The notes under the pieces were generated by a model. It was not told where the DNA came from. It was given only the letters and a program-made list of their open reading frames with translations, and searched no databases. This document shows, one piece after another, positions 10,178 through 47,988 of a DNA stretch of 64,000 nt; within the stretch, counting starts at the first letter, position 1, and each line of letters opens with the position of its first letter. The stretch is taken from NCBI GenBank assembly GCA_016786595.1, contig JAEUWB010000001.1, forward strand, positions 2,504-66,503, read 5' to 3'. A program made the position numbers and the translations under genes. The DNA comes from a bacterium (GTDB taxonomy: Bacteria > Bdellovibrionota_C > UBA2361 > SZUA-149 > JAEUWB01).

Positions 10178-10305
10178 GAATTACGCTTGGAGTTGAGTCA
10201 AAGTCGAGGCGCGGAAATTTTTTCGATGCCGACTTTATTGCAATAAACGAGGCTGAGAAAAAATATTCCGCAACGAAGAATTTGCCCAACAACAAGCGTA
10301 ATTCT
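10178..10305 (+). repeat. Family-3 structured element, copy A (long hairpin, conserved apex)
   Basis: Outer stem GAATTACGCTTG..GTTG / CAAC..CAAGCGTAATTC. Inner stem GCGGAAATTTTTT / AAAAAATATTCCGC. Conserved apex CGATGCCGACTTTATTGCAATAAACGAGGCTGAG. Same orientation as copies at 22002 and 41785. Confidence 0.75.
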
Positions 10306-11134
10306 ACCAGTAGCGTTCGAGGTGGATATGTCCTGGATCTTTTTTAGAATGTTCTTTAAAGCCAAATGGGCCAAGTAGGCTCAGCACATCTTCAATCATT
10401 GCGGGATTGCCACAAAGAAAAAGTTGGGTTGTTGCTGGATTTAGTTCAATTCCGACTAAAGCAGAATAAATCTCTGGCTCGAGCACATTTTGCACGCGAC
10501 CTTCGGTGATCTTTCTACTGGCGTGTTTGGCTGCTGGAGATGCGGCGGCCCAACCTGGTTCACGAGAGACGATTGGCAAATAGGTGAATCGACCGTCAGC
10601 ATCATGTTCAAGATTTTCTAATTCTGCTTTGTATAAAAGCTCGTCCGACTTTCTCACGCCGTTAATGAGCACGGCATTTTTCCAGCGCCCGCCATTCACT
10701 CCGTACGCGCGAAGCATGGAAACAAAAGGTGCAATTCCTGTGCCCGTGGAAACAAACACCACGTTCTCCAATACTCCAGCATGGTCGAGGGAGAATTTTC
10801 CTTTGATTTTAGAATTAATCCAAAGTGTTTGCCCAAGATCGCAGCGATGCAGATTTGGAGTAACCTGGCCGCCTTCGACTCGGGTAATTGCAAATTCGTA
10901 GTACTGCTTTTCTGTTGGGCTTGAAGCGATTGAATATTGTCGCCGAATTATTTTGCCATTTTCTTCATCAAGGGCAAGTTCTGCATATTGTCCGGGAGTG
11001 AAAGCTTCGTTGATTTCGAAATCGGGTTTAATACGTACAACCCATAGCCCTGGGGTGTAGTCTTTGCGCCAAATGACTCGTGCGTTGTGTTCCATTTCTC
11101 TGCGAGGCCTTTTTACCCAATGTCCGACTGGCAA
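10304..11134 (-). CDS. fpr: Ferredoxin-NADP+ reductase
   Basis: 276-aa ORF with RRQYSIASSP (FAD-binding RxYS) and VFVSTGTGIAPF (NADP-binding) motifs and a C-terminal ...LERYW. Confidence 0.9.
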   Translation of the reverse strand: MPVGHWVKRPRREMEHNARVIWRKDYTPGLWVVRIKPDFEINEAFTPGQYAELALDEENGKIIRRQYSIASSPTEKQYYEFAITRVEGGQVTPNLHRCDLGQTLWINSKIKGKFSLDHAGVLENVVFVSTGTGIAPFVSMLRAYGVNGGRWKNAVLINGVRKSDELLYKAELENLEHDADGRFTYLPIVSREPGWAAASPAAKHASRKITEGRVQNVLEPEIYSALVGIELNPATTQLFLCGNPAMIEDVLSLLGPFGFKEHSKKDPGHIHLERYW

Positions 11135-21941: not shown

Positions 21942-22001
21942 AAAAGTAATATGTCATTCCTATGTTCGAATAGCAATACTTTCTGAGGATCTAGTTCCAG
22001 G

Positions 22002-22124
22002 ATTTAAGGGTTCGGTTGAGGAGAGGTCGCGGCGCAAATTTTTTTCGATGCTGACTTTATTGCAATAAACGAGGCGGAGAAAAAAATTTTGCAACGAAGA
22101 GATCGCCCAACCTAACCCTTAAAT
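22002..22124 (+). repeat. Family-3 structured element, copy B
   Basis: Outer stem ATTTAAGGGTT.GGTTG / CAACC.AACCCTTAAAT. Inner stem GCGCAAATTTTTTT / AAAAAAATTTTGC. Apex CGATGCTGACTTTATTGCAATAAACGAGGCGGAG. Confidence 0.75.
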
Positions 22125-23137
22125 CAAGCGGCGAAGAGTTTAAGTTGAGCTGGACATGTCGGCGGCTTAATCGGGAGCAATAACTTTTCCGGAGCAACTT
22201 GCTTCAGCGCATTAAAGACATGCCGATAAGCGTGGGGTCTCAGCGTACGGAGATTTTTATCAGCAATCAATTTCTTCGAGACTGGAAGATTTCGCAATTG
22301 TTGATCCGTAAATGAAGTACCTACTGCTAAACAACCAAAGGTAATGTAATCGGCATGTTGATTTAAAATCTCTGCGAATTTCCATGCATCGCGGTGCACA
22401 TCTCCGTATGGCAAAATTGGCGAAACGACGAGATTAATTTTAACGCCCTGGCAACGCAGCCCATCTACGGCCAATAAGCGCTCGGAAATACGGGGCTGTC
22501 CTGGGGTATAGCGTTGAACCACGTTTTCTAAGGGAGACTCTAAATGCATCGCCACGATGGCTTGTTCTCTGAGCATCTTTAAAGTTGGTAAAGCAGAAAT
22601 TACCATCGGTGAACGAGTCTGGATCACCAGTAGTTGTGGCGCGTAGCGCTCCAACAAATCAAGCACACCCATGGTCACAGCAAATTTTCGATGCAGGGGA
22701 AGAAAAGGATCATTAATTAGTCCCAGGTAAATCACAGACTGATTTAACGTCCCCTGTTCTTTAAGGGTATGCAAGCGTCGTTCAAGTTCGATCAGAGCAT
22801 CATCCTTGAGCATACTCATTCTGCCTGCAGGCAGAAACATCTCACGAGTTTCCGGCAAGCGTAAATGAAACTGGCTTGGAGTGAAAATGTGCTCGGCTGA
22901 AATTTCATCGGCTGCTTTTTCAGTTTCATGAATTGTATATGTCAGACCATTTGGATAACAGTTAATGGAAATTATATTTGTAGCGTAACTTGACCAAGTG
23001 CGAAGCAACTCGGGTAGATGGGGGTCGAATGTGCGCGAAGACAGATCAATCGGTCCCGCATCAATTGGCGTTGAGCTTGTTATTTTAACCGCCCGTAAAT
23101 CTTCTGGACTATGGCTAGCCCTGGGCTTTGTAGACAT
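22124..23137 (-). CDS. Radical-SAM-like (SplB/COG1533-type barrel) protein lacking the CxxxCxxC cluster motif
   Basis: 337-aa ORF. The segments GLINDPFLPLHRKF, LVIQTRSPMV and TPGQPRISERLLAVDGLRCQGVKINLVVSPILPYGD follow the pattern of that family, but the N-terminal 130 aa contain only one Cys. Confidence 0.5.
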   Translation of the reverse strand: MSTKPRASHSPEDLRAVKITSSTPIDAGPIDLSSRTFDPHLPELLRTWSSYATNIISINCYPNGLTYTIHETEKAADEISAEHIFTPSQFHLRLPETREMFLPAGRMSMLKDDALIELERRLHTLKEQGTLNQSVIYLGLINDPFLPLHRKFAVTMGVLDLLERYAPQLLVIQTRSPMVISALPTLKMLREQAIVAMHLESPLENVVQRYTPGQPRISERLLAVDGLRCQGVKINLVVSPILPYGDVHRDAWKFAEILNQHADYITFGCLAVGTSFTDQQLRNLPVSKKLIADKNLRTLRPHAYRHVFNALKQVAPEKLLLPIKPPTCPAQLKLFAA

Positions 23138-38128: not shown

Positions 38129-39295
38129 ATGTTCGGCAGAGCTATTAAGATATTGAATTCTAACAGTTTTTTCCTATTTGGTGCTAGAGGAGTCGGCAAA
38201 ACTACGTTGATTAATCGACGTTTTACAAAAGACGAGCTGCATACAATCGACCTACTCAGTGACAGGGAATTTTATCAATACGATACAAATCCAGATCTGC
38301 TCATCAACCGCGCTAACCAACTTCCAGGCAGTATCAAGTGGATATTAATTGACGAAATCCAACGCGTCCCGAGGTTGCTAAACGTCGTGCATAAGTTAAT
38401 CGAAGAAAAACTAATTAACTTTGCTTTGACTGGATCAAGCTCTAGAAAACTCCGCCGTGGCGGGGCAAACCTTTTAGCTGGACGCGCATTCGTCTACAAT
38501 TTATTCCCCTTAACCCACGTTGAACTTGGAGAGCAATTCAATCTCGATCGTGTACTATCGTTTGGCAGCTTACCGAAAGTTTTTAGCTTACAAACAATTG
38601 AGGAAAAATCTTTATTTCTTGAAAGCTATGTTCACACCTATCTGAAAGAAGAAATTGTTGCGGAGCAATTAGTGCGTAACCTTACACCCTTCAGGAAATT
38701 CCTCCAGATTGCCGCACAAATGAATAGTCAAATTATTAATTTTAGTTCAATTGCACGCGATGTTGGCGTAGACCCAAATACAGTAAAGACGTATTTTAGC
38801 ATTCTTGAAGAAACGCATACAGGAATGCTGCTTGAAGCTTCAGAAAAATCTGTGAGGAAGCAGCAATCTCAAGCTCCCAAATTTTATCTATTTGATACTG
38901 GCGTTAAAAGAGCCTTAGACAATAACATCAACGCTGACGTTTCACCGCAAACATACGAGTATGGTCGCTTGTTTGAAACATTTTTAATTAACGAAATCCA
39001 TCGTCTCAACTATTATTTTCGAAGAAATTACGTGCTTTCATATCTACGCACAAAAGATGACGCAGAAATTGATTTGATCTTGGAACGAAAAAACGAGCCG
39101 CCAATATTAATTGAGATTAAGTCTAAGGATCAGATCAATGCCATTGACACGCGTAGCCTAGATCGATTCAAAGATGTTTTTCCAAAAAGTCGTTTACTCC
39201 TTTTAAGCCTTGACTCCGCAGCAAAACGCTTTGGGAAAGTTGAAGCCTTGCCGTGGCAAATGGGGTTAAGTGAACTTGGATTAACTAAAAAATAA
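38129..39295 (+). CDS. AAA-family ATPase (COG1373 / DUF4143-type)
   Basis: 388-aa ORF with an AGGAG RBS, Walker A GARGVGKTT, Walker B LIDEIQRVP, and a C-terminal DUF4143-like region ending in a restriction-endonuclease-like EIDLILE...IEIK. Confidence 0.85.
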   Translation: MFGRAIKILNSNSFFLFGARGVGKTTLINRRFTKDELHTIDLLSDREFYQYDTNPDLLINRANQLPGSIKWILIDEIQRVPRLLNVVHKLIEEKLINFALTGSSSRKLRRGGANLLAGRAFVYNLFPLTHVELGEQFNLDRVLSFGSLPKVFSLQTIEEKSLFLESYVHTYLKEEIVAEQLVRNLTPFRKFLQIAAQMNSQIINFSSIARDVGVDPNTVKTYFSILEETHTGMLLEASEKSVRKQQSQAPKFYLFDTGVKRALDNNINADVSPQTYEYGRLFETFLINEIHRLNYYFRRNYVLSYLRTKDDAEIDLILERKNEPPILIEIKSKDQINAIDTRSLDRFKDVFPKSRLLLLSLDSAAKRFGKVEALPWQMGLSELGLTKK

Positions 39296-39315
39296 AGGTG
39301 GGGAGCTAAGGCAAT
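39294..39315. repeat. Cassette-boundary inverted repeat, forward copy 1 (AAAGGTGGGGAGCTAAGGCAAT)
   Basis: Near-identical to 40439-40460 and reverse-complementary to 40339-40355. Lies just 3' of ORF 39366-40169. Confidence 0.8.
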
Positions 39316-39365
39316 TGCTAAACCTTGGAATTTTACAAACGCAGTCACTCCCCCAGCAAGTCAAT

Positions 39366-40169
39366 TTACGCTGACAACTTCTGCGGATCACCTTCCAAAT
39401 GATCGCTTGAATAGTTTGCCAGTCCGCCTTGAGCAATGACGCGAATTTCACGACCTTTCGGATCCGTTGTCAGGTGAATGAAATGGGCGCTTAAGTCCAG
39501 CACTTCACCAATTTGCCTGGCGAGGAGTTCACGTAACTCGTCAACTTCTTCTGGAAGCACCTTTCGCAGCTCCTCGGTTAATTGCAGGTTAACAAAGAGC
39601 GCATATTGCATTTCTGCGCTTGCTGCAGAGGTTTCGACCTTGCCAGTTAACGGCACTGCCAAGACTTCACCATGAATCTGCTTTCCGAGAGCGCTGCATT
39701 TAAACGAGTAACGCTTGGCCGTAAGGTTGCTGCCCACACGACTGCGTTTCAAAAACTCAAATGCCGATTCCGGGATTGAGATCTCCGCCACTTCGTAGCC
39801 ATATCCTTCGCGGTAACGCAGGATTCTTATAGCTGCGGCATGTCGATTTGGCGCCCCACGTTTGTAATCCATGCGCAACATCACAAGCCCCAAGGCATCT
39901 CCTGCTAAAATGCCTTCCGTCCAAAGCGGCAAGTCTTTCACAAACCTGGACTGAGGATGGACCCTGGGGTCGAAAGTAAATTCGAGGCTATTGCCACTAA
40001 GTTTATAGGCAACACATGAATCAACCAGAGGTTGAGAGAGATAAGCAATCCCGACGTGCGATTCTTCTGCGCCCGTGCGCTGGGCAAAAGCCTGTAACGC
40101 AGAAGCAGTTAGAGGGAGTGATGACGAAAAGCCGACAAAGCATGTCGTTGTGAGTATTGGTCTTGTCAT
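39366..40169 (-). CDS. Hypothetical protein (cassette unit 1)
   Basis: 267-aa ORF, G+C-rich relative to its flanks, with an N-terminal hydrophobic/signal-like segment. No family recognised. Confidence 0.6.
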   Translation of the reverse strand: MTRPILTTTCFVGFSSSLPLTASALQAFAQRTGAEESHVGIAYLSQPLVDSCVAYKLSGNSLEFTFDPRVHPQSRFVKDLPLWTEGILAGDALGLVMLRMDYKRGAPNRHAAAIRILRYREGYGYEVAEISIPESAFEFLKRSRVGSNLTAKRYSFKCSALGKQIHGEVLAVPLTGKVETSAASAEMQYALFVNLQLTEELRKVLPEEVDELRELLARQIGEVLDLSAHFIHLTTDPKGREIRVIAQGGLANYSSDHLEGDPQKLSA

Positions 40170-40338
40170 TTTTGTTCTGAGTTAGGCAGACGAATCCGCC
40201 GAATGTCCTCCGAGATTTCAGAGCAGTGCTCGGCCGAGCAAAGCTGTCTTAAAATGGTTGGCACCACCTCAAGACAACTTTGCTTCAAATTTCAAGCAAA
40301 ACAATAACTCAGGGACTTACAACCTTAGATAAAACTTT

Positions 40339-40355
40339 ATTGCCTTAGCTACCAC
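40339..40355. repeat. Cassette-boundary inverted repeat, reverse copy 1 (ATTGCCTTAGCTACCAC)
   Basis: Pairs with 39297-39315. Together with 40439-40460 it forms a ~120-nt imperfect palindrome between the two ORFs. Confidence 0.8.
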
Positions 40356-40438
40356 TGATCACAGCGCATAAGGGCACTGTCGTGAGTGGCAATTAAGAAT
40401 TCTTCTACCGATATTGAGATTTAGTTGAAAATAGATTT

Positions 40439-40460
40439 AAAGGTGGGGAGCTAAAGCAAT
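40439..40460. repeat. Cassette-boundary inverted repeat, forward copy 2 (AAAGGTGGGGAGCTAAAGCAAT)
   Basis: Identical at 21 of 22 positions to 39294-39315 and reverse-complementary to 41932-41948. Confidence 0.8.
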
Positions 40461-40627
40461 CAAACCATCCGAAGCATTCCAAAAGGAAAGTGCTCCCCAA
40501 ACCAAAAACATTGCTCTCGAGACTTAATCAGTCACGAAGAGGTATGAATGTATGAATCCAGGCCGACGCCCTCGATCACTGTTACCAGGCCGAGGGTCGT
40601 CAGCTGTTTGCGCTTGTCGAGCTGCTG

Positions 40628-41458
40628 TTAGGCGAGCTGAAGTTCGCGCGGGGTTTCGAGCTTGCCGTCCTGGACGAGGCTGTAAATCCAGCCAAGTCCG
40701 TAGCGGGCAACGAGCTCCGGAGCGACGTATCGCTTGTCTCCAGCGAGGATTAAGTTCTCCGGCTTGAGGCCGGTGGCTTCGGCCAGCTTGGGAGCGATCG
40801 CCTGAAGGACCTCGGATTGCTCGAGCTGAGCGGCCGTCATCGGGTGCTGAGCGTAGAACAAAGGCAGATAACCTGCCTCGCCTTCCTCGCCACGCACATC
40901 CGTGAGCTTCAGGAAGAACGCTGTCACCGGAACTTCGGCCGTCTCGCCATTGAGGTGAGCCGAGATCTGGAGCTGAACGCCTTTCATCGTTACCGAATCG
41001 CCCTTGCGACACTGGGTCGCCATGAGCATGTACTCTTGCTCCGTAAGAGCAACGGCTGGCGCGTCCTGGGTGCCAAACTTCGGATCATGGAGCTCGAAGA
41101 CAAGCGCGTAGCTGACTTCTTTGCTCTGCACCGAAGTTCGCTCCGCAACGAGCAACACCTGACCGACCTTGCCGTCCTCATCGTTCAGCAAGTCGTAGAC
41201 GAACTCGGGGAGTTCTCCGCCATCTTTCAGCTGCTTCGGCTGACCGTTGATGAAAAGCTCGGTCTTGCCGTTGCTCTTCTGCGCCGTGATGGCGCTGCTC
41301 GAAACGACCGGGATGTTTACCGGAATCATCTCGATGCTCATCGGATTCGAAGCACCGGGCTTGCCGAAGATCGGACGAAGCGCAGCGGCGGCGAGGATCG
41401 CGAACGACGAAAGGCCGAACTTGCCGGCTTGAGTGATAGCAGTTGCGTATCTGTTCAT
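40628..41458 (-). CDS. Hypothetical protein (cassette unit 2)
   Basis: 276 aa from the ATG at 41458 (MNRYATAIT..., with a signal-like FGLSSFAILAAAAL). The track ORF extends to a TTG at 41569. Strongly G+C-rich, with five stop-free shadow ORFs overlapping it. Confidence 0.55.
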   Translation of the reverse strand: MNRYATAITQAGKFGLSSFAILAAAALRPIFGKPGASNPMSIEMIPVNIPVVSSSAITAQKSNGKTELFINGQPKQLKDGGELPEFVYDLLNDEDGKVGQVLLVAERTSVQSKEVSYALVFELHDPKFGTQDAPAVALTEQEYMLMATQCRKGDSVTMKGVQLQISAHLNGETAEVPVTAFFLKLTDVRGEEGEAGYLPLFYAQHPMTAAQLEQSEVLQAIAPKLAEATGLKPENLILAGDKRYVAPELVARYGLGWIYSLVQDGKLETPRELQLA

Positions 41459-41784
41459 TGATGTGTGTTTGTGCGTGGGGTACTGAGAACTAGCCCCATT
41501 ACGCTTCCTTTTTTTCAGCAGCAAGCCAACCTGGGGAAACCCCAAATTGATTCTCACAAAGCTGCCCAAAAAGAATAATTAATTCCCTCTAGGCAACTTT
41601 GCGTAGTCTTGCTGTGATTGCGAAGGAGACCAAATACATTTGGTCGACTGCGGCAATCTGTTCACTGAACTGATAAAAAGAATCAAAAAATGGTTAGGAG
41701 AGATTGCTTCGTCGGCTAACGCCTCCTCGCAATGACTCGATCATACCGTTTCCCATTTCCATACATGTGAATATACTTAAAAGC

Positions 41785-41915
41785 CCTTATTAGATTTGAG
41801 GTTGTGCCAAGTTCGACGAGCGGGAATTTTTACGATGCCGACTGTATTGTAATAAACGAGGCGGAGAAAAAATCTCCCGCGAGGAAGAAATTGGCCAAGA
41901 TCGAACCTAATAAGG
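41785..41915 (+). repeat. Family-3 structured element, copy C
   Basis: Outer stem CCTTATTAG... / ...CTAATAAGG. Inner stem GCGGGAATTTTT / AAAAAATCTCCCGC. Apex CGATGCCGACTGTATTGTAATAAACGAGGCGGAG. Nested inside cassette unit 2. Confidence 0.75.
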
Positions 41916-41931
41916 ACTTTTAAAACCTTAA

Positions 41932-41948
41932 ATTGCTTTAGCCACCAC
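41932..41948. repeat. Cassette-boundary inverted repeat, reverse copy 2 (ATTGCTTTAGCCACCAC)
   Basis: Pairs with 40442-40460. Confidence 0.8.
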
Positions 41949-42404
41949 TAATCAGAATAGACTTCACAGAAGCCCGACCCAAAATAGCGGTAACTAATCC
42001 CCTTCTACCCGTATTCAATTGTTATTTGCTTCACACCCTAAAATCACACGCGCACATTCCAGACTTATTTGTTCTGGAAATTTTTTGAAGATCCGTTTCG
42101 ATTTATTTTGTGTGCACAGAAGTTCACACAAAAATCGAAGTCTTGATGACAAAATCCGACGTACAGACGTGTCGTGAAGCAGCTCAACCAAGAATAAACT
42201 CTCTATTGAGCGAACGGCTGTGTATCAATTCTTGTCGACACAGACAAGTGGAATATGAGTGAAATATTAGATGTTTATTATTTGTTTTATAAATACTCTA
42301 ATATAATCGTGTAGTTATATAAGCTATCTTTTTAGCGTGTTTTATTGCCGTGTATACATAATGTTTCACTGTTATAGGGCCATTCTTGCAGAACGGCTAG
42401 AATT

Positions 42405-43157
42405 TTATTGATAGCACCTTGCTTGCTGCCAAAGCATTTCAAAGTGCTCTCGAAAACCCTTAGCAACTGCCGCATTAAAAATCTGCACCACCATCACATC
42501 AGCCCCGTAGATCTCAATTGTCGTTAAATCTCCAGCAATGCGGGTAAAGCTTGGCGAAGAAAGACCGGTTTTCATTGTTTTTAAAATATTAAGCTGATCC
42601 TTTGCCAATTTCTCCTTGTGCACATCTGAAGTGGACTCAGGAGCGATTAAATATTTTCTAACCTTTAATTTAAGTCCAAGCTTGCGATAGTCTTCATAGC
42701 GACTGCCAATTGCCTCATAAAAGAGCACATCAGCAGCACCCCCAATAATGCGAACGATTTTATCAGTCTTACTTGCCGTGCGAAGCGTCAGCTCCAAATT
42801 GCGGAAAAACTCTTCGCGTCCATATAAAACTTTTACGTCGAGACGGTCCGGAGAGCTTGATTGCAATGCAGAAAGCTGCGGCAGCAGTTGGAGTAGTTCC
42901 CGGCCCTTAGCTTCGTGAAGCTCTTTTAGGGTTTCAGGATTAGCGGCTTGAAATAATTTTTTACCGCGCTTAATTACCCAGTGAACAAGCTTTCGCTGGT
43001 GCAATTTTTCCAAGGCTGCATAGACGAATTGGCGATGTAATCCCGTGCTGGCAATCACTGGGCCAGCATTTGTCGGGCCAAGCTTTAAAAGCTCCGTGTA
43101 AACCTGAGCTTCGTGCTTGGTGAGATCGAAATGCGACAAGGAATCAATAATACTCAT
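42405..43157 (-). CDS. TrmB-family transcriptional regulator
   Basis: 250-aa ORF with an N-terminal winged HTH (FDLTKHEAQVYTELLKLGPTNAGPVIASTGLHRQFVYAALEKL). Paralogous in layout to ORF 47248. Confidence 0.8.
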   Translation of the reverse strand: MSIIDSLSHFDLTKHEAQVYTELLKLGPTNAGPVIASTGLHRQFVYAALEKLHQRKLVHWVIKRGKKLFQAANPETLKELHEAKGRELLQLLPQLSALQSSSPDRLDVKVLYGREEFFRNLELTLRTASKTDKIVRIIGGAADVLFYEAIGSRYEDYRKLGLKLKVRKYLIAPESTSDVHKEKLAKDQLNILKTMKTGLSSPSFTRIAGDLTTIEIYGADVMVVQIFNAAVAKGFREHFEMLWQQARCYQ

Positions 43158-43358: not shown

Positions 43359-44585
43359 TTGAGGAGTCGTATGCGTAAAGAGTTATTTTCAGCAGCAGTA
43401 GTTGTCGCCGCACTTGGATACTTTGTCGATGTATTCGACCTGCTACTTTTTAGCATTTTAAGAGTTCCGAGTTTAAAAGAGCTCGGACTAAACGACGCGC
43501 AAATTCTCGAACAAGGCATTCACATTCTCAATCTTCAACTCGGCGGATTAATTTTCGGTGGCATCATCTGGGGAATTCTCGGCGATAAGTTTGGCAGGCT
43601 TTCGATTTTATTTGGGTCAATCTTTCTTTACTCGATAGCTAATATCGCCTGCGCCTTTGTACAGAACGTCGAAACTTATGCCCTACTACGCTTTATCGCT
43701 GGGCTCGGTTTAGCTGGAGAGCTCGGCGCAGGCATTACTCTAGTCTCAGAATTACTTTCCAAAGAAGACCGTGGCTGGGGCACAACTCTCGTTACTGCAG
43801 TTGGTGTTGCCGGGGCAATTGTCGCTGGATTACTAGCGCAAGTTGTCTCCTGGAGAGTTTGCTATTTTATTGGCGGAGTGCTGGGCCTATTGCTTCTCGT
43901 TGCGCGCGTGAGCGTTTCAGAATCCGAGGCATTTAAAGCAATTAAATCAAAGTCTCAAGTCAAACGGGGTAGTATCCTGATGCTTTTTTCCACCTGGGAC
44001 AGAGTCAAGCGTTATCTACTTTGCATTTTGCTTGGGTTCCCAATTATGTTCGTGGTTTATATTTTTGTAACTTTTTCGCCAGAAATTTCAAAAGGACTAA
44101 ATATCACTGGGGCTGTCTCGGCAGGGACAGGAATAGTATTTTGCTATATTGGAATAACAATTGGCGATTTCCTTTTTGGCGCTCTAAGCCAAATTCTTAA
44201 AAGCCGCCGTCGCGCTTCGCTTTTATCGCTACTTGGCCTAACGGTTGGATTATTAATTCTATGGCTAGCACCGCCGCGCTCAACTGCTACAATCTATATC
44301 TATTGCACTTGTTTAGGCCTACTTTCTGCAAACTGGGCTGTATTATTAACTAGCGCAGCAGAGCAATTCGGCACGAACCTGCGCGCCACTGCAGCGACTT
44401 CGATTCCAAATATGGTGCGCGGGAGTGCAATTCTCTCCACGCTTTGCTTCAAAGATTTAAAATCCTATTTTTCGCCCTTTGATAGCGCTCTGATCGTTGG
44501 TTTTGCTTCGATTCTAATTGCCTTTATCGCTCTACAGTTTCTTGAAGAAACTTACGGTAAGGACTTGGATTTTATTGAAGAATAA
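43359..44585 (+). CDS. MFS transporter
   Basis: 408-aa ORF with about 12 hydrophobic helices and an MFS loop motif GILGDKFGRL between TM2 and TM3. Confidence 0.88.
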   Translation: MRSRMRKELFSAAVVVAALGYFVDVFDLLLFSILRVPSLKELGLNDAQILEQGIHILNLQLGGLIFGGIIWGILGDKFGRLSILFGSIFLYSIANIACAFVQNVETYALLRFIAGLGLAGELGAGITLVSELLSKEDRGWGTTLVTAVGVAGAIVAGLLAQVVSWRVCYFIGGVLGLLLLVARVSVSESEAFKAIKSKSQVKRGSILMLFSTWDRVKRYLLCILLGFPIMFVVYIFVTFSPEISKGLNITGAVSAGTGIVFCYIGITIGDFLFGALSQILKSRRRASLLSLLGLTVGLLILWLAPPRSTATIYIYCTCLGLLSANWAVLLTSAAEQFGTNLRATAATSIPNMVRGSAILSTLCFKDLKSYFSPFDSALIVGFASILIAFIALQFLEETYGKDLDFIEE

Positions 44586-47096: not shown

Positions 47097-47247
47097 TTGT
47101 TCTCCGCTACGCTTTTCAAGCAGGCCGAGGATCGCAGATTCCCTAAAAACTGTCATATTTGTCGACAGTTATGCTGAGTTATGCGATTAATATTCTATAA
47201 CTACTGGGTAATAATGTTGTCGGAAAATTCGACACTTTTTGCTGAGA

Positions 47248-47988
47248 ATGAACAAAAAACAGATTATCAAAAGCTTAAGCGAATTTGGCCTGCGCGAAGA
47301 GGAGGCTAAATTATATTTAGCAACTCTTACTCTGAATCGCGCCACAGTGTTACAACTTGCTCGTGAATCAGAGATTAAGCGCACAACAGTCTATTCATTA
47401 TTAGAAGGTCTAATCCAAAAGGGATTAATCAGCCAAGAAGTTGGTGGTGCGCGTAAACGTTATACTGCTGAAGACCCCGACAAGTTAATTGAACTTTTAA
47501 AACATCGCCAGGAAAGTTTGCAAGAAATCCTGCCTGAGCTCTCAGCGCTGCAAAGTCTACATGGCGGTGAAAGTCTAATAAAATATTATCAAGGATTGGA
47601 ATCGATCAAAGGTGTCTATGAAGGATTAATCAAAGATGTCCGTCCGGGGAATGATTATTTTGTAATCTCCGACCAAGCTCAATGGCTCAAGCATGACCCA
47701 AAGTTCTTTGAGGATTTTTCTAGACGACGCGGCCGACTAGATGTCAATATTCGGTTACTGTTAGTTAACAATGCTACTTCCTGCGCATACCAAAAACGGG
47801 AGCGAGAACTTAATGTAAAAATTAAGCTTCTGCCGAAAGGAACCACGTTAAGAACAAATCTTGTAGTGACGCCACAAAAAGTTGTGATTCATCAACTGAT
47901 TCCCCCACTTTTTGCTTTAGTCATAGAAAACAAAAGTATTATTCAGATGCAAAGTGAATATTTTAAAATCCTTTGGGAGCGAATCTAG
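47248..47988 (+). CDS. TrmB-family transcriptional regulator
   Basis: 246 aa from the ATG at 47248 (the track's TTG is at 47239). HTH: FGLREEEAKLYLATLTLNRATVLQLARESEIKRTTVYSLLEGL. Confidence 0.8.
   Translation: MNKKQIIKSLSEFGLREEEAKLYLATLTLNRATVLQLARESEIKRTTVYSLLEGLIQKGLISQEVGGARKRYTAEDPDKLIELLKHRQESLQEILPELSALQSLHGGESLIKYYQGLESIKGVYEGLIKDVRPGNDYFVISDQAQWLKHDPKFFEDFSRRRGRLDVNIRLLLVNNATSCAYQKRERELNVKIKLLPKGTTLRTNLVVTPQKVVIHQLIPPLFALVIENKSIIQMQSEYFKILWERI

Follow-up and report, generated by a model that had tools for sequence, protein, structure and literature searches.

Inverted repeats around two tandem genes of a rare bacterial family are most likely parts of a folded untranslated mRNA frame

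Two neighbouring single-gene units on the minus strand of a 64-kb stretch of bacterial DNA (the window, whose coordinates are used throughout) are bounded by the same inverted repeat, and the question is whether this repeat marks the ends of mobile cassettes, as a first-pass annotation tentatively suggested, or belongs to the expression of the genes that it encloses. Both repeat types were found where that annotation had placed them: the 3'-side repeat, TAAAGGTGGGGAGCTAA(G/A)GCAAT, lies on the plus strand at 39293-39315 and 40438-40460, and the 5'-side repeat, ATTGC(C/T)TTAGC(T/C)ACCAC, at 40339-40355 and 41932-41948. Every unit is bounded by a separate pair of sites, with an 86-nt spacer between the sites. 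The 19-mer of the repeat has two matches in the window even when three mismatches are allowed (0.01 expected), and the exact 11-mer core occurs in the window at the four repeat sites only.

The enclosed genes are ORF1 (39366-40169, minus strand; 267 aa) and ORF2 (40628-41458, minus strand; 276 aa from its ATG). A 313-aa version of ORF2 from a TTG start is unlikely, because the alignment of homologues begins at the ATG. As first suspected, neither can be assigned to a family: these are ORFan products with no sequence match in Pfam, NCBIfam, PHROG, PADLOC or PDB. ORF2 matches a profile of ORF1 and its homologue P0002 (hhalign E 3e-4; 23% identity between ORF2 and ORF1), and no homologue of ORF2 was found beyond this match to the ORF1 family. 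P0002 is 44% identical to ORF1, and P0124, detected by profile search only (E 4e-29), is 27% identical; these are the only two further members among ~15 billion proteins. ORF1 and ORF2 are thus tandem, highly diverged paralogs in a very rare, fast-evolving gene family. The units code for protein, since 44% amino-acid identity is preserved despite almost no nucleotide identity. The raised G+C reported for both ORFs is real (50.1% for ORF1 and 59.0% for ORF2, the window averaging 44.6%; GC3 0.49 and 0.73, against ~0.37-0.45 in neighbouring genes), as are five overlapping shadow ORFs at 40.5-41.5 kb. The G+C excess extends to all four members of the family, whose two hosts have 44% GC, and is therefore no mark of recent arrival at the locus; high GC3 (~0.7) is a family trait.

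Around each gene we find an ordered set of non-coding elements, all on the minus strand. Upstream of ORF2, the box GTAGAAG (42002-42008) is followed by a 5' hairpin, H5 (41938-41997), which has a 13-bp outer stem with three G.U pairs and the 5'-side repeat as its 3' strand, and which folds at -30 kcal/mol on the sense strand (z -3.45) and at -7.3 kcal/mol on the antisense strand (z -0.09). The 5' arm TAGTGGTGGCTAAAGCAAT (41932-41950) is complementary to the 3' arm ATTGCTTTAGCTCCCCACCTTTA (40438-40460), with a duplex of -23.2 kcal/mol (z -3.8 against shuffled arms). The leader continues with a long G.U-rich hairpin, HL (41556-41602; 21 bp; covariance model 69.7 bits sense, 26 antisense), and a proximal segment (41466-41540) that shares 97% identity over 75 nt with the region preceding P0002 in contig L005. 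It also holds a palindromic element (41777-41925; copies at 10178-10312 and 21998-22127), an inserted member of a separate repeat family rather than a component of the frame. Beyond ORF2, a G+C-rich trailer (40504-40627; sense fold z -3.2) with a 10-bp hairpin (40565-40601) and 26 nt identical in L005 (40594-40619) leads to the 3' hairpin H3 (40445-40498; -21.6 kcal/mol, z -1.9), a GGGGAGC...GCTCCCC stem that includes the 3'-side repeat and is followed by ACCTTTAAATCTATTTT.

Unit 1 repeats this order, with the box at 40402-40408, H5 at 40343-40397 (-27 kcal/mol and z -3.0 sense, z -1.3 antisense), the 5' arm CAGTGGTAGCTAAGGCAAT (40339-40357) pairing with the 3' arm at 39293-39315 (-24.7 kcal/mol, z -3.8), and HL at 40238-40283 (21-22 bp; 63.1 bits sense, 25.8 antisense), for which Rfam gave a sub-threshold miRNA-precursor match only. 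Its H3 (39300-39354; -21.8 kcal/mol, z -1.8), a GGGGGAG...GCTCCCC stem followed by ACCTTTATTTTTT, is terminator-like, and the end of the 3' arm overlaps the stop codon of a convergent DUF4143 ATPase gene. The shared GTAGAAG motif and the stems at both 3'-side repeats had already been picked out on first reading.

The frame recurs around P0124, in a genome and context (locus L009) unrelated to those of the window, with an M20 peptidase gene on one side and a GDSL lipase gene on the other. There the GTAGAAG box is followed after 47 nt by AGTGGTAG, and GCTACCCC...ACCTTTTT lies downstream of the gene. The box, a 5' hairpin ending in AGTGGTRG, an HL homologous to those of both window units, a 3' hairpin with a T-rich tail and mutually complementary arms are all present, the arms pairing through a different sequence. 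The register of H5 is not exactly that of the window units, and the 3' arm comes after a small terminator-like hairpin and might therefore fall outside the transcript. Across units 1 and 2 and L009, the box is invariant and stands 45-52 nt upstream of AGTGGTRG or the 5' repeat.

Comparing these three loci, two of which are neighbours in one genome, we find that structure is conserved while sequence changes. In the arms, 82% of cells are paired and five pairs have changed on both sides, a result equalled by 2 of 500 shuffles, while slid registers give 0-1 such pairs. Duplexes between a locus's own arms reach -23 to -28.5 kcal/mol, whereas arms taken from different loci give -15 to -16 kcal/mol; within a single locus, with G.U allowed, a complementary run of 12-14 nt is not unusual. 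The G/A co-variation between the repeats of each unit, seen in the first-pass annotation, is present but would arise by chance about half the time with two units alone, and it gains meaning because the third locus was added. For HL, 98% of cells are paired over 21 pairs, nine pairs are compensatory, a U.G is conserved in all three loci, and none of 500 shuffles equals this; its covariance model finds three copies only over 94 kb (57-70 bits sense, 24-26 antisense).

The strand on which these elements fold points to RNA. H5 has z of -3.0, -3.45 and -4.1 on the sense strand of the three loci and -1.3, -0.1 and -2.7 on the antisense strand, and whole leaders reach -5.7, -7.3 and -9.05 on the sense strand, with much weaker antisense folding. 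Read on the gene strand, every H3 combines a G+C-rich stem with a T-rich tail, and orientation is constant at every locus, the box and H5 lying upstream of the coding sequence and H3 downstream. The arm duplex is as stable on the antisense strand as on the sense strand, and the arms themselves therefore do not separate RNA pairing from DNA inverted-repeat identity.

We suggest that the inverted repeats common to the two units most likely form part of a folded untranslated region, conserved around the mRNA of each gene. Somewhat better than even, in our judgement, is the fuller proposal that a conserved non-coding frame accompanies each family member and acts in the mRNA through 5'-3' pairing, the units not being integron-type cassettes. 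Transcription would start at or near the GTAGAAG box, although the region upstream of H5 yielded no convincing promoter, and a 5' UTR of 230-560 nt would fold into H5, with the 5'-side repeat as its 3' strand, and HL. The message would terminate in H3 and its U-rich tract, where the 3'-side repeat sits. The 12-14 nt immediately 3' of AGUGGURG in the 5' UTR complement the H3 region of the same unit, so that the two ends of one mRNA could pair; alternatively, a fragment derived from the 3' UTR might pair with the leader in trans. Either pairing might set mRNA processing, stability or translation, for instance through an RNase III-type duplex, and the tandem arrangement would reflect duplication of a whole framed transcription unit.

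Known systems offer partial parallels. In rRNA operons, processing stems that are RNase III substrates bracket 16S and 23S rRNA. There, as here, complementary sequences flank a whole gene longer than 1 kb, and that gene exceeds its AT-rich genome in G+C content; the present units, however, encode proteins, and their stems are just 12-18 bp. Another is icaR of Staphylococcus aureus, in which the 5' and 3' UTRs of one bacterial mRNA base-pair (PMC3868564). In both cases, the gene's 5' and 3' untranslated segments complement each other and could form a duplex of RNase III size, and the 3' partner adjoins a terminator hairpin. The icaR 3' UTR pairs with the Shine-Dalgarno region, whereas here 150-470 nt separate the 5' arm, which adjoins a conserved hairpin, from the start codon downstream; the present feature, predicted from sequence, is also conserved with covariation across paralogs and hosts.

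The units do resemble integron cassettes and attC arrays, including CALIN arrays, in being tandem and single-ORF, with ORFan products of odd composition, an imperfect palindrome between the ORFs and no integrase in view. We nevertheless reject integron-type cassettes. Among ORFs of at least 150 aa in the 64-kb window, none showed an integrase, transposase or HUH domain, and RYYYAAC/GTTRRRY cores are absent, both in line with the first-pass annotation; R''/R' cores are lacking, and a unit carries a pair of arms instead of a single 3' site. The ~120-nt junction, read as an attC-like palindrome, pairs at its ends only and folds no better than shuffled sequence (z -0.8 and -1.0). The repeats do not behave as cassette boundaries either: conserved sequence and structure run past them and travel with one gene family, the long 5' leaders are structured, and the flanks act like strand-specific RNA structure. 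The 19-mer was not found in 185,579 representative genomes (one chance-level match), JGI metagenomes or IMG/VR.

A broader DNA-level reading, which we consider unlikely, is that the arms are recombination or transposition sites (TIRs of a non-autonomous element, or attC- or pdif-like sites served by a recombinase encoded elsewhere), making the unit or its coding block movable. Such an element would account for single-gene units with repeats matched within each locus, for a foreign-looking codon composition (GC3 ~0.7 in 44%-GC hosts), for the occurrence of the family in two unrelated contexts and for an arm duplex equally good on both strands. The one element of cassette behaviour that still stands is contig L005, where the ORF1-like coding sequence of P0002 sits within proximal flanks 97-100% identical to those of ORF2; a different family member does occupy the same flanks, but the edges of this swap are those of the coding sequence, not of the arms. 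Besides the missing cores, junction fold and further repeat copies, this reading is opposed by the lack of a recombinase or transposase, both in the window and in the listed Pfam annotations of genes up to 10 kb from P0124, of target-site duplications (none seen by eye at the window units and L009) and of Xer-like 11-6-11 dyads. The inverted repeats do not enclose the conserved box, nor one half of H5, and high GC3 is kept in members that are 20-27% identical, which favours a family trait over recent transfer. Mobile insertion cassettes such as those of qnrD and qnrS2 (PMC3913671, PMC2600179) likewise place a passenger gene between short inverted repeats and enclose no transposase, but the present units show no target-site duplication or cognate insertion sequence, are conserved past their repeats, and have repeats that accompany one gene family only. 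The plasmid dif modules of Acinetobacter (PMC6449649) are also small gene modules with inversely oriented bounding sites and a recombinase encoded elsewhere, and our units too lack a nearby one; they differ in having no 28-bp XerC/XerD-type site with an 11-6-11 dyad, a chromosomal context, and their own site pair per unit separated by 86 nt.

Phase variation, in which an invertase encoded elsewhere would use the arms as inverted-repeat sites and, by flipping the segment, uncouple the gene from an outside promoter near GTAGAAG, seems to us quite improbable. Each gene is bracketed by inverted repeats with a conserved element just beyond the 5' one, their outer part (GTGGKRG) is common to the loci and their inner part is locus-specific and matched within a locus as crossover needs, and contig L014 starts 5 nt ahead of the L009 5' arm. 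Yet all retrieved window-strain contigs and six P0124 places are in a single orientation, the vicinity contains no invertase, identical cores span only 8-12 bp, and inversion leaves the highly structured sense-strand leader within the segment unexplained. We give similarly little credence to operator sites, bound upstream and downstream by one DNA-binding regulator with which they would co-evolve between species. The same sequence, inverted, flanks each gene and differs between the two hosts, and a TrmB-family regulator gene (42405-43157) that could encode such a protein adjoins unit 2; the Pfam annotations listed for L009 within 10 kb, however, include no TrmB-family gene, a shared regulator does not explain a unit-specific G/A difference within one genome, and the sense-strand G.U-type mismatches and strand-biased leader structure are left unexplained. 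That the repeats are functionless relics of tandem duplication is hardly credible, even though the units are adjacent paralogs, given a 23-nt repeat differing at one base around coding sequences down to 23% identical and the same architecture with compensatory changes at the unrelated L009, where a protein identity of 27% speaks against the locus having come recently from the window lineage.

The structured mRNA frame thus remains our preferred reading. Independent short contigs stop near 41528-41540 and 40589-40594; should these come from RNA libraries, the stable ORF2 mRNA would lack H5, HL and H3. In this unsampled bacterium the repeats of the family most likely represent a new RNA motif rather than the boundaries of mobile cassettes.

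The inverted repeats that the first-pass annotation had placed at the ends of two tandem, minus-strand single-gene units are confirmed, with the 3'-side repeat TAAAGGTGGGGAGCTAA(G/A)GCAAT at 39293-39315 and 40438-40460 and the 5'-side repeat ATTGC(C/T)TTAGC(T/C)ACCAC at 40339-40355 and 41932-41948. A 19-mer of the repeat searched with up to three mismatches has 2 matches in 64 kb where 0.01 would be expected, and its exact 11-mer core is present in the window at the four sites only. The gene of unit 1 (ORF1) spans 39366-40169 (-) and encodes 267 aa; the gene of unit 2 (ORF2) spans 40628-41458 and encodes 276 aa when read from the ATG at 41458, which we prefer because homologue alignments begin there. 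Also as described are the raised G+C (50% for ORF1 and 59% for ORF2 vs 44.6% for the window), the five shadow ORFs overlapping the ORF2 region, the GGGGAGC/GCTCCCC stems, and the second shared motif, a GTAGAAG box on the gene strand 45-52 nt upstream of each 5' repeat. The G/A co-variation within units can be seen, but it concerns one position in two units and is worth about as much as a coin toss.

The window is an ordinary segment of a Gram-negative chromosome, with an arginine operon and genes for LPS heptosyltransferases, MinCD, enolase, Dxs and aminoacyl-tRNA synthetases. The best non-self match of argD is 50% identical, so that there is no related genome for a synteny comparison, and clustering at 90% identity leaves enolase, TyrRS, Dxs and ArgC as singletons. 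The source lineage has no sequenced relatives and is essentially unsampled; the ORFan status of the two genes therefore weighs less than usual. Looked up as exact proteins in ENA and Logan assemblies, ORF1, ORF2 and the two genes next to them returned the same strain only (99.2-100% identity), with the unit arrangement unchanged. A Shine-Dalgarno-like motif precedes about 40% of the genes checked in the window.

Unit 1 adjoins an AAA_14/DUF4143 ATPase gene (38129-39295, +) whose stop codon falls within the unit's 3' repeat; in PADLOC, the product of this gene matches PDC-S01, a candidate single-gene defence system (E 9e-59). On its upstream side, unit 2 adjoins a TrmB-family regulator gene (42405-43157, -), and a second gene of this family lies less than 5 kb away (47239-47988, +). 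In a contig from a near-identical strain (L006), 15 positions depart from the window sequence inside a stretch of 52 nt (43442-43493) at the start of an MFS transporter gene, against only 3 in the remaining 2.2 kb of the contig; the pattern resembles a local recombination tract or hypervariable patch.

The proteins of ORF1 and ORF2 share 23% identity and are distant paralogs by profile comparison (hhalign E 3e-4 against the ORF1 profile). Among 5.8 billion clustered proteins, one homologue was found for ORF1 (P0002, 44% identity) and none for ORF2. When 1.84 billion representatives were searched exhaustively with a profile, P0124 was the only further member, which brings the family to four members among about 15 billion sequences. 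Sequence searches with the proteins against Pfam, NCBIfam, PHROGs, PADLOC and the PDB gave no match. Since GC3 is about 0.7 in all members (0.49 in ORF1) and the two different hosts are each about 44% G+C, the high G+C is a property of the family and not a sign of recent invasion at this locus. The AlphaFold2 model of ORF1, of low confidence (pLDDT 59), has only weak matches to CYTH / triphosphate-tunnel folds (TM 0.35-0.5). We rejected an assignment as a CYTH-like beta tunnel protein and left this function unassigned because the charged residues of catalytic type vary in the family alignment. The model of ORF2 (pLDDT 42) is unusable.

The third locus at which the flanks can be compared is that of P0124, on a 153-kb Logan contig from an unrelated genome (L009), where its neighbours on either side are genes for an M20 peptidase and a GDSL lipase. 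Beyond the family member, ORF-level blastp found no gene common to this contig and the window. The flanks of P0124 nevertheless have the same architecture as those in the window: upstream, GAGTAGAAG, 47 nt, TAGTGGTAG and then TGAGAGCTG; downstream, CAGCTCTCGCTACCCC and then ACCTTTTT. The arms, by which we mean the complementary segments on either side of each gene that contain the 5'-side and 3'-side repeats, have their outer parts AGTGGTRG and GCT.CCCC in common between L009 and the window, while their inner parts differ, yet keep their mutual complementarity. When the three units are aligned with the register anchored, 82% of the cells are paired and five pairs have changed on both sides; 2 of 500 shuffles did as well, and slid registers gave 0-1 pairs changed on both sides. 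Duplexes of a unit's own arms reach -23 to -28.5 kcal/mol, whereas arms combined between loci reach -15 to -16 kcal/mol. The longest complementary run per locus, with G.U allowed, is not significant, a run of 12-14 nt being nothing unusual; the arm evidence draws its weight from homologous position and compensation.

The flanks carry further structure on the gene strand. A local hairpin, H5, has the 5'-side repeat as its 3' strand and is stronger on the gene strand (z -3.0, -3.45 and -4.1) than on the opposite strand (-1.3, -0.1 and -2.7) because G.U pairs are used. Whole-leader folds reach z -5.7 in unit 1, -7.3 in unit 2 and -9.05 in L009, and are far weaker in antisense. Between H5 and the coding sequence, the leaders contain homologous long, G.U-rich hairpins, HL, at 40238-40283 (unit 1), 41556-41602 (unit 2) and 9913-9975 of L009. 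Over the 21 aligned pairs of HL, 98% of the cells are paired and 9 pairs are compensatory, which 0 of 500 shuffles matched; one U.G pair is kept in all three loci. Run over 94 kb, a covariance model of HL found the three copies only, at 57-70 bits in sense vs 24-26 bits in antisense. No Rfam family matched at its gathering score; for the HL hairpins there were only sub-threshold matches to miRNA precursors. On the other side of the gene, a hairpin with a G+C-rich stem, H3, has the 3'-side repeat as its descending strand in the window, and a T-rich tract comes next on the gene strand; in L009 the repeat is the loop of H3. Coding-strand structure with compensatory changes is what is expected of structured untranslated regions with 5'-3' pairing, and it is what we observe.

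A separate family of palindromic repeats of about 130-150 nt is present at 10178-10312, 21998-22127 and 41775-41927, the third copy lying within the ORF2 leader between H5 and HL. The copies have a conserved core, CGATGCCGACTTTATTGCAATAAACGAGGCGGAGAAAAAA, and outer stems that vary by copy and keep their complementarity, with compensatory changes in 12-13 of the 47 predicted pairs; the element is as good on one strand as on the other. These look like a MITE or REP-type element, or a structured RNA.

The best reading of the repeated unit is that of a putative framed transcription unit, in which the GTAGAAG box, H5 and HL precede the coding sequence and H3 follows it, and in which the inverted repeats would be complementary segments of the 5' and 3' untranslated regions. 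Most likely, the two mRNA ends would pair with each other, or a fragment of the 3' UTR would pair with the leader, and this pairing may control the processing, stability or translation of the mRNA; HL and the arm duplex would be plausible targets of a double-strand-specific nuclease. That the units are transcribed, pair in vivo and regulate is what we infer from conserved, strand-specific structure. Some indications run counter to this proposal: no promoter was identified under sigma-70, sigma-54 or ECF-type readings of the GTAGAAG region, a small terminator-like hairpin stands ahead of the 3' arm in L009, the arm duplex is of equal stability on the antisense strand, and independent short contigs terminate slightly within the frame.

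A cassette-like trait comes from a 931-bp JGI contig (L005) that carries P0002, an ORF1-type gene. The 75 nt upstream of P0002 are 97% identical to the proximal leader of ORF2, and downstream the match to the ORF2 trailer is 100% over at least 26 nt; since these flanks match those of ORF2, the contig appears to derive from a related strain with a very different family member in the slot of ORF2. This fits allele replacement via recombination in the conserved flanks of a locus that is diversifying. One could also propose that the hairpin-bounded frames are signals for a novel exchange mechanism that works on single-stranded nucleic acid and swaps G+C-rich coding blocks between conserved frames, and L005, with an ORF1-type gene within the ORF2 leader and trailer, would be one example. 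The breakpoints of the swap lie at the coding sequence and not at the 5'-side or 3'-side repeats, and we regard such a mechanism as very improbable. If it did exist, it would amount to a new gene-cassette system without a recognisable recombinase, in a lineage without sequenced relatives.

The trailer after the ORF2 stop (40504-40627, -) is G+C-rich, runs on in frame for 31 codons without a stop and has a 10-bp hairpin at 40565-40601; a segment of 26 nt recurs unchanged in L005 (903-928), where the frame relative to the upstream gene differs. The trailer after P0124 in L009 is likewise G+C-rich and stop-free. Short independent contigs have ends that cluster at the edges of the G+C-rich block of ORF2, at about 41514-41540 and 40504-40594: L003, which opens with an Illumina adapter, at 41528 and 40589, L005 at the equivalents of 41540 and 40594, L006 at 41514, and L001, which starts at 40504. 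They could reflect allele polymorphism or drops in coverage or, should the libraries derive from RNA, the ends of transcripts.

The arms might instead act at the DNA level, as parts of a mobile module, an inverton or an operator pair, but the available tests came out contrary. In keeping with the first-pass annotation, no integrase, transposase, HUH or other recombinase domain was found in any ORF of at least 150 aa in the 64 kb. No further copy of the repeat turned up in representative genomes, JGI metagenomes or IMG/VR, and the units are without attC cores, Xer dyads or, by eye, target-site duplication. A TIR-bounded transposon or mobile insertion cassette has a target-site duplication directly outside its repeats, and the similarity of its copies ends where the repeats end; here sequence is kept beyond the repeats, the GTAGAAG box and the 5' strand of H5 being conserved 10-60 nt outside the 5' repeat in all three loci, and inspection by eye found no duplication in the flanks of unit 1 (AAATAAAG / TGATCACA), unit 2 (GATTTAAAG / TAATCAGA) or the L009 unit (TAGCGC / AACCTT). 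The 64 kb of the 84-kb contig contain no cognate insertion sequence with matching repeats and a transposase. Xer dif modules have 28-bp sites with two inverted arms of about 11 bp and a 6-bp spacer, and around the six arms, to a distance of about 20-25 nt, there is no such dyad (9-11-bp arms, 5-8-bp spacer, up to 2 mismatches).

The units had been likened to integron cassettes, with an attC-type site at their junction. Their modularity is real, but without a recombinase, attC cores or a junction fold the rest of this reading is unsupported. Integron arrays have an IntI-type tyrosine recombinase and an adjoining attI (missing from CALINs), whereas our units have neither an integrase nor a transposase in view. 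Each integron cassette carries one attC at the 3' end of its ORF, with cores RYYYAAC (R'') and GTTRRRY (R'), whereas each unit here has a 5' arm and a 3' arm (ATTGCYTTAGC... and ...GCTAARGCAAT) without these cores, and the final unit terminates in a half-site only. An attC folds into an imperfect hairpin over its full length (57-141 nt), whereas the junction pairs at its terminal 12-18 nt only: the palindrome of about 120 nt noted there folds no better than shuffled sequence, and 40330-40470 taken as DNA has no significant fold (z -0.83 on the + strand and -1.04 on the - strand). Finally, many unrelated genes share one type of site in integron arrays, and content differs among strains, whereas the frame here was found around this family only and near-identical strains have the arrangement of the window. 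In 185,579 representative genomes the 19-mer has one match, in a Saccharibacteria MAG without further similarity, where we estimate about 9 by chance; JGI metagenomes and IMG/VR gave none. Nor does the ORF2 leader have a match in JGI metagenomes, a collection that evidently does not hold L005. An inverton would occur in both orientations in the population, and all assembled contigs have a single orientation.

The units are best described as a candidate new architecture of structured untranslated regions that surrounds the genes of a new and very rare family, whose members show persistently high GC3 and signs of allele replacement. Units of this kind, bounded by inverted repeats and containing a G+C-rich ORFan, can pass for mobile cassettes, which is relevant to automated callers of cassettes and islands. 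If the proposed role in RNA is true, the 5' hairpin, the long G.U-rich leader hairpin and the 3' hairpin would be a new set of structured-RNA motifs absent from Rfam, in which a whole gene is bracketed by complementarity kept through covariation. To our knowledge, few cases of conserved 5'-3' end pairing in bacterial mRNAs have been studied experimentally, and a family that keeps end pairing across paralogs and hosts would be a clean test system.
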